Shown here in pieces: positions 4,578-6,033 of a DNA stretch of 37,609 nucleotides. Location of the stretch: positions 1 to 37,609 of the forward strand of contig DATLXT010000027.1 of the NCBI GenBank assembly GCA_035575475.1, in the 5' to 3' direction. This stretch comes from Gemmatimonadales bacterium. Its GTDB lineage: Bacteria > Gemmatimonadota > Gemmatimonadetes > Gemmatimonadales > GWC2-71-9. The position numbers and the translations under genes were made by a program. How positions within the stretch are numbered: position 1 is the stretch's first letter; each line of letters opens with the position of its first letter. Below the pieces are notes generated by a model. It had not been told where the DNA came from and did no database searches. It was given only the letters and a program-made list of their open reading frames with translations.

Positions 4578-5533
4578 AACAGCTCCAGCAGGTCCGGAAC
4601 CCCTTGCCCGGTCACGGCCGAGATCCCGACCACCGGGGCATCGTCCTCGGTACGGATGGTCGGGAGCCGGGAACCGGGAGGCAGGAGGTCCAGCTTGGTC
4701 ACCACCACGAGGTGCGGTTTGGCCGCGAGGGCCGGCGAGTAGAGCGACGCCTCACGGCGCAGCAGGTCGTAGGTCCGCTGGGGATCGGGGCTGTCAGCCG
4801 GGATCAGCACCGCGATCACCCGGGTGCGTTCCACGTGCTGGAGAAAGCGCAGCCCCAGCCCCTTGCCCGCGTGCGCCCCCTCGATGATCCCGGGAATGTC
4901 CGCCACCACGAACGAGCGCCCGCCCGACAGCCCCACCACCCCCAGGGTCGGCTCGAGCGTGGTGAAGGGATAGTCCGCGATCTTGGGCCGCGCCGCCGAG
5001 ATGACCGACAGCAGGGTACTCTTGCCGGCGTTGGGCTCCCCCAGGAGTCCCACGTCGGCGATGAGCTTCAGGACCAGCTCGATGGTCCGCTCCTCGCCGT
5101 ACTCGCCGGGCTCCCACTCGCGCGGCGAGCGGTGCGTGGGAGTGGCGAAGCGCGCGTTCCCCCGCCCTCCCCGGCCCCCCTTCGCCACCAGCAGGGTCTG
5201 CCCCGGTTCCACCACCTCGCCGAGCAGCTCACCGGTCGTGGCGTCCCGCACCACCGTGCCCAGGGGGACGGGCAGATAGAGATCGGCGCCGCTCTTGCCG
5301 GTCATGTTCTTCCCCTTCCCGTGCTGGCCTCGCTCGGCTTTCCAGTGGGTGCGGTAGCGATAGTCGAGCAGGGTGGCGAGGTTGGGATCGCCCCGCAGGT
5401 ACACGCTCCCCCCTTGCCCCCCGTCGCCCCCGTCGGGACCGCCCTTGGGCACGAACTTCTCGCGGCGGAACGAGCAGGCGCCGGCGCCCCCGGGGCCGCC
5501 GACCACGTGGACCACCGCGCGATCAATGAACAT
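4532..5533 (-). CDS. obg: GTPase Obg/CgtA
   Basis: Obg-fold N-terminus [46 protein letters not shown]. GTPase motifs [17 protein letters not shown] and TKLD. ATG start at 5533. Confidence 0.95.
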
Positions 5534-5951
5534 CGGAATGCGGAATGGGGAGTTCGGAATGCGGAATGGGGAATGGGGAATGGGGAATGGAGCGGCGCGC
5601 GCCCCGTGCGGTGCGGATGGACGATACCGCGATGGCGACCAGCTCGTTGGCCTCAGTCCGCAGGGTCCGGACCCGTAGGGGTGCCACCATCCCCGATTTC
5701 GCCAGCAGCTCCATCCAGAATCCGCTCTCGTCCGCCTCTTCTTCCACGATGCCCAGCCGGGCGACGAACTCGCGTCTCGAACGGGCCCGGCACGCGGCCC
5801 GATAGTTCGCCGCCACGGACGTGCCGGCCCGCAATAATTGCCTCCCCAGCACCTCGGCGGCGCCGGTGCGCGGCAGCTCCAACGTGAGCCGCACCACCGC
5901 CAGCGCGAATGCGTCCATGCGCTCTCTCAGCTCGCTGCCCCTATTCCCCAT
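5523..5951 (-). CDS. Four-helix-bundle protein (23S rRNA intervening-sequence protein / Avd-like family)
   Basis: The core [70 protein letters not shown] matches the pattern I recall for the TIGR02436-type four-helix-bundle family. The 220-aa ORF in the track runs antisense into lpdA, so a later ATG is more likely (5951, or 5918). Both termini read through the heptamer arrays. The stop overlaps the obg start. The exact start is uncertain. Confidence 0.65.
5534..5590. repeat. Tandem 7-nt repeat array, 8 units of [C/G]GGAATG on the + strand (one degenerate unit GGGAGTT)
   Basis: Read directly: cggaatg cggaatg gggagtt cggaatg cggaatg gggaatg gggaatg gggaatg. It starts immediately after the obg start codon. 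Confidence 0.95.
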
Positions 5952-6022
5952 TCCGCATTCCCCATTCCCCATTCCCCATTCCCCATTCCCCATTCCGCAT
6001 TCCCCATTCCGCATTCCGCATT
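5942..6022. repeat. Tandem 7-nt repeat array, about 11 units of CATTCC[C/G] on the + strand, the exact reverse complement of the 5534-5590 array
   Basis: Read directly: tattccc, then 10 perfect units at 5949-6018 (cattccg, cattccc x5, cattccg, cattccc, cattccg x2), then a partial unit cattg. It ends at the lpdA Shine-Dalgarno sequence. Confidence 0.95.
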
Positions 6023-6033
6023 GAGGAGGCTGA

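Follow-up and report, generated by a model that had tools for sequence, protein, structure and literature searches.

The stretch of DNA considered here, 37,609 nucleotides (nt) of a Gemmatimonadales genome (assembly GCA_035575475.1, contig DATLXT010000027.1; hereafter the window), carries between obg and lpdA a cassette of 489 nt in which the gene for a four-helix-bundle (4HB) protein lies between two arrays of tandem heptamers. The arrays are reverse complements of one another, the 4HB reading frame is open into both, and on the minus strand obg is followed in order by dprA, hemW, hrcA and dnaJ (Table 1). A sequence-only reading of this DNA had proposed that the unit is a discrete cassette with the topology of an rRNA intervening sequence (IVS), and that it may also control the genes on either side. 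Comparison with related loci bears out the first proposal, showing sites that lack the cassette and a different allele of it between near-identical flanks.

Table 1. Coordinates of the cassette and of the genes that adjoin it in the window.
Feature	Position	Strand	Description
5′ (upstream) array	5939–6022	minus	12 tandem units GGAATG[C/G] on the gene strand
3′ (downstream) array	5534–5590	minus	8 units CATTCC[C/G], one degenerate; extends to the obg ATG
4HB gene (TIGR02436/PF05635; S23p/IVS-protein/Avd-like)	5523–5918	minus	131 amino acids; ATG 5918, stop 5525–5523
4HB stop/obg start overlap	5523–5533	minus	11 nt; TGA 5525–5523, ATG 5533–5531
obg (GTPase ObgE/CgtA)	4532–5533	minus	TIGR02729, E 2e-125; first host gene downstream
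lpdA with Shine-Dalgarno sequence	6023–7425	plus	TIGR01350, E 3e-167; divergent from the cassette

Tandem Repeats Finder places the 5′ array at 5939–6022 (period 7, 12.0 copies, 92% matches) and the 3′ array at 5535–5590 (period 7, 8.0 copies, the degenerate unit being GAGTTCG). The eight [C/G]GGAATG units that had been read on the plus strand at 5534–5590 are thus recovered; of the roughly eleven CATTCC[C/G] units read from 5942, the array itself is real, its actual extent being 12 units from 5939. The units, which can also be written CCCCATT and CCGCATT, are free of stop codons in all six frames, as read from the sequence and the translated reading frame, and the 5′ array holds in-frame ATGs at 5951, 5972, 5993 and 6014. 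Allowing at most one mismatch, GGAATGSGGAATG has 15 matches in the 37.6-kb window against 0.05 expected, all of them in the two arrays, and no other array of the GGAATG[C/G] unit occurs elsewhere in the window. The arms pair best between 5534–5590 and 5962–6018, over 57 nt at 95% complementarity, with a longest perfectly complementary run of 35 nt; both the perfect stem of at least 21 bp and the stem of about 50 bp with a few mismatches that had been predicted are accommodated by these values. In the predicted fold of the minus-strand RNA from 5520 to 6035 the two arrays pair with each other, as anticipated (dG −294 kcal/mol, z = −8.5 against 100 shuffles). The cassette matches the base composition of its host (GC 0.67–0.73). 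No rRNA, tRNA or Rfam family was found in the window, in keeping with the earlier statement that no rRNA gene is nearby, and Rfam searches at permissive thresholds in the window region and five related loci returned only tRNAs and chance matches.

The 131-residue product of the enclosed gene is identical to the NCBI entry ‘four helix bundle protein [Gemmatimonadales bacterium]’. It matches the PF05635 profile (E = 7e-13, 49.1 bits, above the 33.8 cut-off) and the TIGR02436 profile (E = 7e-21, 74.4 bits, above the cut-off of 24), and the family assignment made from the letters thereby passes the profile search proposed for it. A profile built from homologues matches 2RLD in the PDB (E 8.6e-25). 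An AlphaFold2 model of the monomer (pLDDT 86) has helices at residues 2–14, 19–43, 48–74 and 80–106, and its top Foldseek matches are 2RLD (TM-score 0.72/0.87, root-mean-square deviation 1.8) and 2GSC; bAvd (4DWL) and a ribonucleoprotein of a diversity-generating retroelement (DGR; 8UB7) were also matched, with probability 1.00 and query-normalised TM-scores of 0.64–0.66. The reading frame encodes a genuine PF05635/TIGR02436 protein which, as modelled, shares the fold of 2RLD, 2GSC and bAvd. The protein is under purifying selection, with dN/dS of 0.09–0.14 in the three closest cassette pairs (dS 0.5–0.8). Its invariant residues are concentrated in an arginine-rich stretch; conserved and rich in arginine, the protein probably binds nucleic acid, possibly the arrays themselves. 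Scans of the protein against PADLOC and PHROGs gave zero matches. Because the N-terminus of homologues (xELKERTKAFAL) aligns with window residues that begin before M5918, the real start of the 4HB protein may lie upstream, inside the 5′ array. At its other end, about 22 C-terminal residues derive from the 3′ array and the start region of obg.

Evidence that this unit is an insert comes from the junction at which it resides. The upstream neighbour is a same-strand gene of the CMD family in 17 of 17 related cassette-bearing Gemmatimonadales loci, and the nine Gemmatimonad loci to which the 4HB protein led all have the 4HB gene directly upstream of obg-dprA-hemW-hrcA-dnaJ. A cassette-blind scan made with Obg, for whose window sequence a look-up gave no exact match on record, yielded ten informative loci whose Obg is at least 77% identical to that of the window; seven of these carry the cassette, and it is present in none of the loci with lower Obg identity. 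Two relatives (L092 and L094) have an empty site, in which only 3 nt separate the CMD stop codon from the obg start (TGA tcg ATG and TGA ccg ATG). At filled sites the first bases of the 5′ array provide the CMD stop codon, CMD is without its last ~3 codons, and the 3′ array extends to the obg start or supplies part of it. The sequence-only reading had also taken the unit to fill a control region belonging to obg and lpdA. That view is not supported: in the 17 relatives the cassette is intercistronic behind CMD, the junction with lpdA is peculiar to the window, and empty sites exist. Since the window lacks both CMD and asparaginase-II genes, while its relatives have CMD in this place, the lpdA junction is, on gene order, a rearrangement specific to this lineage, at an array that is unusually long (12 units).

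Other small repeats were seen at or near the same place. In one relative (L084, metagenome contig WNEQ01066148.1, 370–615) the CMD–obg junction holds, in place of a 4HB cassette, an unrelated repeat element of ~240 nt, made up of three tandem ~30-nt repeats (ggtgggtccgcgtgccacgcac...cctcgttag) inside a GC-rich inverted repeat of ~30 nt (ttaaccccgggg...ccccggggtt); the site is apparently a hot spot where small insertions land. The two relatives with the empty site carry a single, non-inverted TCGTGCG array of ~4 units between asparaginase-II and CMD, where it extends over the start region of CMD (L094 1833–1861, L092 266–290).

Among filled sites, the cassette has a history of its own. Two loci (L085 and L087) have flanks that are 96–100% identical in DNA, around cassettes that are 38–76% identical per 60-nt window; at the protein level their 4HB sequences are 63% identical and their Obg sequences 95%. 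Beside obg, beneath its different array, L085 keeps 3.6 units of the L087 type. Pairwise identities of 4HB and of Obg are uncorrelated (Spearman 0.07, 136 pairs). The 4HB identity is 70.7% within array unit types against 63.7% between them (p<1e-4), while Obg identity does not follow unit type (p=0.40); the gene and its arrays therefore move together.

In 16 of the 18 obg-linked loci, the window counted, the 4HB stop codon meets or overlaps the obg start (by 0, 1, 10–11 or 22 nt), and in four metagenomic operons the 4HB gene as called shares 1–4 nt with the start of its downstream neighbour. The 11-nt overlap in the window is, to judge by the positions of the two codons, the geometry of translational coupling; it also agrees with the earlier statement that the frame enters both arrays and overlaps the obg start. 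No Shine-Dalgarno sequence for obg is visible in the window. On the other side, the Shine-Dalgarno sequence of lpdA (GAGGAGG, 6023–6029; TTG start at 6034) directly adjoins the 5′ array. The divergent units 4HB-obg and onward, and lpdA-lipB, must begin within or beside the 489-nt cassette, yet no sigma-70-like match is found there; a terminator scan gave nothing useful.

Cassettes of this kind are widespread. In a protein search 7,984 of 8,000 scored candidates matched, and the best 120 homologues were analysed; these are 63–75% identical to the window's protein (the range leaves out P0001, which is the record of the window itself, and one row for which no identity was given). By motif count, heptad C-terminal tails are present in 102 of the 120 and N-terminal array peptides in 43, with ends such as IPHSAFRIPHS, NPQSAIRNPQS and VPRSAFRVPRS and frequent starts such as MRNAECG... 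and NAEVGTRNAE.... These heptad peptides are what the heptamers ATTCCGC, AATCCGC and GTTCCGC and their complements encode, and the corresponding units were seen as DNA in relatives (GCGGAAC/GTTCCGC in L001, GCGGATT/AATCCGC in L002, GCGGAAT/ATTCCGC in L003). Among species-representative genomes there are at least 598 relatives across at least 10 phyla, of which the best 80 (48–65% identity) come from Gemmatimonadales, Verrucomicrobia, Planctomycetes, Acidobacteria, Chloroflexi, Nitrospirota, Deltaproteobacteria, Rhodothermia and others. For 89 4HB genes with full flanks, arrays were detected on both sides of 45, on one side of 32 and on neither side of 12. In 32 of the 45 two-sided cases the units upstream and downstream are exact reverse complements of each other, and nine more are one base off, against 11.5% exact matches in a shuffled-partner control; at least 11 unit types occur. 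A gene set within inverted heptamer arrays is thus an architecture found again and again. By an open-frame and third-position GC heuristic, both neighbours lie on the cassette strand at 42 of 58 classifiable non-Gemmatimonad loci.

The operons concerned are diverse. Cassettes lie between genes for an ABC ATPase and an FtsX permease (L165, L166), within a NiFe-hydrogenase operon (L167), and between ilvN and a glycosyltransferase gene (L164). On plasmids, same-strand 4HB genes lie among the genes of defence systems: between DUF1156 and Swt1-family HEPN genes in Gloeocapsa and Chlorohelix (L175, L178), and between DISARM drmD and BREX pglX on plasmid p1 of Planktothrix agardhii PCC7805 (L177, NZ_LR882951.1, 16324–21647), where a full heptamer hairpin (GATTTAC arm, AATCCCC/AATCGTA arm) is present on each side. 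On viral contigs there are just 6 relatives, some of them beside arrays, which is no evidence for phages as the main vector. Two further loci deserve mention in their own right. Roseithermus sacchariphilus MEBiC09517, a cultured organism with a complete genome (CP030158.1, cassette within 789077–797385; L044, 3824–3925), has a 4HB gene of 65% identity, in front of which 14 units of GGAATG[C/G]/AGAATGC start at the stop codon of a TonB-receptor-like gene; its unit types are those of the window, making it a candidate experimental model. In a metagenome-assembled genome of Acidobacteriota (L067, 4543–5457) the gene immediately downstream of a 4HB gene is a dprA homologue, 40% identical to the dprA of the window; this may be coincidence or a preference for that gene neighbourhood.

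Heptamer arrays also occur without the gene. In 4HB loci 140 further period-7 arrays are present, at 1.87 per 10 kb compared with 0.53 in 4HB-free loci, a comparison that mixes taxa; among them are 21 gene-less inverted pairs with spacers of 7–143 nt. The exact unit flanking the local 4HB gene recurs in 43 of 128 distant arrays, against 7.3% in the control. One such hairpin (L001, 6670–6773) occupies the entire gap between two same-strand genes. Another (L002, GCA_003222135.1, QHUM01000069.1, 8881–8953) lies in frame within an asparaginase-II-like gene, where GATTGCG x4.6, a 16-nt loop and AATCCGC x3.6 add 16–21 residues relative to three orthologues, an arrangement reminiscent of Rickettsia palindromic elements. 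The window itself contains two segments ~6.3 kb apart (24702–28404 and 31059–34692) that are 73–79% identical over several stretches of 77–196 nt; they are probably tandemly duplicated paralogous genes, unrelated to the cassette.

The closest known relative of the cassette is the IVS of 23S rRNA genes that bears an open reading frame (ORF). In Leptospira, Coxiella burnetii and others, terminal inverted repeats build a long stem whose loop holds a PF05635/TIGR02436 ORF, as they do here, and the IVS-like topology proposed from the sequence, with an S23p-family ORF inside a terminal inverted-repeat stem, is upheld. The Coxiella IVS is 428 nt long, has an inverted-repeat stem cut by RNase III and an S23p ORF, and carries GACAGAT heptamers directly upstream of the ORF start in 2–3 tandem copies that vary by strain (PMC4990558). 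The likeness extends to size (~430–760 nt for IVSs, 489 nt for the cassette), to sense orientation within the host transcription unit (for the cassette, relative to the downstream genes), to a sporadic distribution with suspected horizontal transfer and, in Coxiella, to heptameric repeats just upstream of the ORF. Unlike an IVS, the cassette lies outside rRNA, between the protein-coding genes obg and lpdA; its stem consists wholly of tandem heptamers on both sides; its ORF, by its position, appears coupled to the start codon of the next gene; and that ORF, unlike the one in Coxiella, which is decaying and apparently not translated, is intact and subject to purifying selection.

A second likeness is to the cyanobacterial short tandemly repeated repetitive (STRR) sequences, whose canonical units are CCCCA[A/G]T (STRR1), TT[G/T]GTCA (STRR2) and CAACAGT (STRR3). 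On cyanobacterial plasmids 4HB genes have such arrays at their sides; rotated, the AATCCCC beside the 4HB gene of the Planktothrix plasmid reads CCCCAAT, the STRR1 unit. The window unit CCCCATT is one base off CCCCAAT and belongs to a Gemmatimonadales host; it is thus not a canonical STRR of a cyanobacterium. The 7-bp repeats of STRRs fold into hairpins and occupy intergenic and intercistronic sites, that between hupS and hupL among them, and roles in transcript stability and translational coupling have been proposed for them (PMC2670836). They share with the cassette tandem heptanucleotide arrays able to form hairpins between genes. STRRs have, however, been described as repeats only, and 4HB arrays are found also in Verrucomicrobia, Planctomycetes, Acidobacteria, Chloroflexi, Nitrospirota and others. 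We found no report that links STRRs to a protein gene. Nor did we find a description of heptamer-flanked 4HB cassettes outside rRNA, in a literature search whose incomplete coverage of subscription journals means that this absence is not proof.

We consider it probable, if well short of certain, that the element is an exchangeable selfish cassette of the IVS type, inserted at a gene junction and living off the host operon. The comparison of loci shows that it entered the CMD–obg junction in an ancestor of a Gemmatimonadales subclade, that gene and arrays were later exchanged together and independently of the host backbone, and that the upstream flank was rearranged in the window, where lpdA now abuts the 12-unit array. 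Lacking a recognisable promoter and usually lying on the same strand as both neighbours, the cassette would be transcribed by read-through of the operon. With ATGs supplied by the 5′ array, translation would begin within it or just beyond, cross the stop-free 3′ array and end on the next start codon. The essential gene obg would then be translated by termination-reinitiation, as proposed because the units are stop-free, the 4HB stop and obg start overlap, and obg has no visible Shine-Dalgarno sequence. Any transcript spanning both arrays must fold; on a shared transcript the arrays would form a 35–57-bp duplex, which by analogy with the S23p-bearing 23S rRNA IVS we infer to be an RNase III-type substrate, with translation and cleavage presumably in competition. 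The arrays may in addition serve as recombination or homing handles for insertion and replacement.

Several observations weigh against this account. The cassette neither encodes nor adjoins an enzyme for its movement, a comparison of empty with filled sites shows no duplicated target bases, and ordinary homologous recombination after horizontal transfer could explain the replacement. Recent intragenomic bursts can be rejected, copies within a genome being diverged (33–83% identical). The strict array detector leaves 12 of the 89 genes without arrays, and the neighbour orientations come from a heuristic rather than a gene finder. No sigma-70-like promoter was matched on either strand between 4500 and 7500 of the window, and there is no upstream read-through into the window cassette because lpdA is divergent. 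At the RNA level, arm mismatches are G-U-compatible in the sense strand in 11 cases, in the antisense strand in 11 and in neither in 52, and since they show no G-U bias, RNA pairing is not demonstrated to be a selected property. The complementarity of the arms is as expected of the terminal inverted repeats of a DNA element. We do not rely on a small sense bias in RNAduplex energies (52 versus 37 loci, p=0.005), because the energies of whole 170-nt GC-rich flanks are large even after shuffling and the mismatch count is unbiased.

The gene-less hairpins raise a different explanation, which we regard as possible but somewhat unlikely, in which the 4HB protein is the keeper of a genome-wide family of heptamer hairpins, much as in REPIN-RAYT systems: it would bind the arrays as DNA or RNA and maintain them, spread them or use them in mRNA processing or stabilisation, and its gene would merely be a copy inside one hairpin. 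This overlaps with the selfish cassette and differs by the array-directed function. REPINs are dispersed, hairpin-forming doublets of repetitive extragenic palindromic (REP) sequences (PMC3116915), and like them the cassette combines one gene bracketed by inverted short repeats with gene-less hairpin doublets in the same genome. It is unlike REPINs and their REP-associated tyrosine transposase (RAYT) in that its protein is a four-helix bundle of no known catalytic activity and not a Y1 transposase, its repeats are tandem heptamer arrays and not unique 20–30-nt palindromes, and it lies in sense orientation inside operons. A keeper role would account for the 21 gene-less pairs and the sharing of local units by distant arrays, for arrays 3.5 times denser in 4HB-bearing loci, for the in-frame hairpin in the asparaginase-II-like gene, and for a strongly conserved, basic protein with the fold of bAvd, itself part of the DGR ribonucleoprotein. 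The co-variation of 4HB gene and unit type also fits, but simple linkage predicts the same; the mixture of taxa weakens the density comparison, many arrays in 4HB loci have unrelated units, the 37.6 kb of the window hold no other array of its unit, and the protein, whose binding to arrays is putative, has no catalytic motif. Only the 4HB protein is encoded in the cassette, which has no transposase. A Y1_Tnp gene (IS200/RAYT-type, PF01797) does lie between dprA and hemW in two relatives (L002 12774–13202, L168 6911–7174), ~2.4 kb downstream of the cassette; no heptamer arrays were found around the copy in L002, the one checked.

That the cassette is kept directly upstream of obg in 18 loci with a conserved stop/start overlap, fills all the non-coding DNA between obg and lpdA in the window, and encodes a protein under purifying selection might instead point to a domesticated regulatory leader of obg, lpdA or both, in which the stem hides the start regions and the protein feeds back. 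We think this quite improbable: close relatives without the cassette have obg coupled straight to CMD, the junction of another relative is occupied by an unrelated repeat element, the alleles have been exchanged independently of obg, the cassette type is present in unrelated operons of many phyla, and adjacency to lpdA is unique to the window genome. Very improbable, in our judgement, is an ordinary, vertically inherited host gene whose arrays are a by-product of replication slippage at hairpin-forming intergenic DNA. Host-like base composition, variable unit copy number and the lack of a mobility gene would suit it, but it leaves unexplained the complementary units on both sides in 32 of 45 loci with at least 11 unit types, the precise empty sites, the allele replacement between flanks 96–100% identical, and proteins 50–65% identical across many phyla. 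The structural match to 4DWL and 8UB7 (TM-score about 0.65), and the fact that PF05635 is the commonest family beside DGR reverse transcriptases (PMC10053308), would be expected of a DGR remnant with the 4HB protein as its Avd. Yet bAvd and the 4HB protein share fold and superfamily at a sequence identity of only 17–20%, and the nearest structures, 2RLD and 2GSC, are not from DGRs. The earlier statement that no reverse transcriptase is nearby stands for what was scanned: ten window ORFs, six of them without any Pfam match and none with a reverse-transcriptase family, the other ORFs of the window lying outside the scan; the gene tables of seven related contigs hold none either. No template/variable repeat pair (~100–150 nt, differing at adenines) is present, the only direct repeats of at least 45 nt being the paralogous segments at 24.7–34.7 kb, 19–29 kb away, and weak matches. 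With neither a template/variable pair nor a reverse transcriptase among the ten ORFs, we reject a DGR origin as exceedingly improbable.

A broader reading, which we hold to be unlikely, is that 4HB proteins are the dedicated partners of a hitherto unrecognised class of transposase-less mobile DNA with inverted heptamer-array ends, STRRs and ORF-bearing IVSs included, and that the protein recognises the arrays and promotes their insertion, exchange or extension. By analogy with the part that Avd plays in the reverse-transcriptase complex of DGRs, it might for instance bring in a polymerase or reverse transcriptase to copy a short template on either side of a break; repeated copying at both sides would give inverted arrays. 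If true, this would explain three orphans together: the STRRs, the ORFs of IVSs and the huge TIGR02436 family.

On the reading we favour, that of a selfish IVS-type cassette, the unit at obg is a discrete insert of a widespread, barely described class related to the inserts of rRNA genes. It links three objects, namely ORF-bearing rRNA intervening sequences, STRR hairpins and Avd-like proteins outside DGRs, and the relationship is testable in the cultured R. sacchariphilus MEBiC09517. For annotation, because the reading frames extend into the arrays, heptad tails such as IPHSAFR, NPQSAIR and VPRSAFR are encoded by repeats, as are some insertions in unrelated proteins. The very large TIGR02436/PF05635 family gains a genomic identity, a major clade of it consisting of cassettes with inverted heptamer-array ends that reside at intercistronic junctions, are swapped between near-identical chromosomes and travel with their repeat type.

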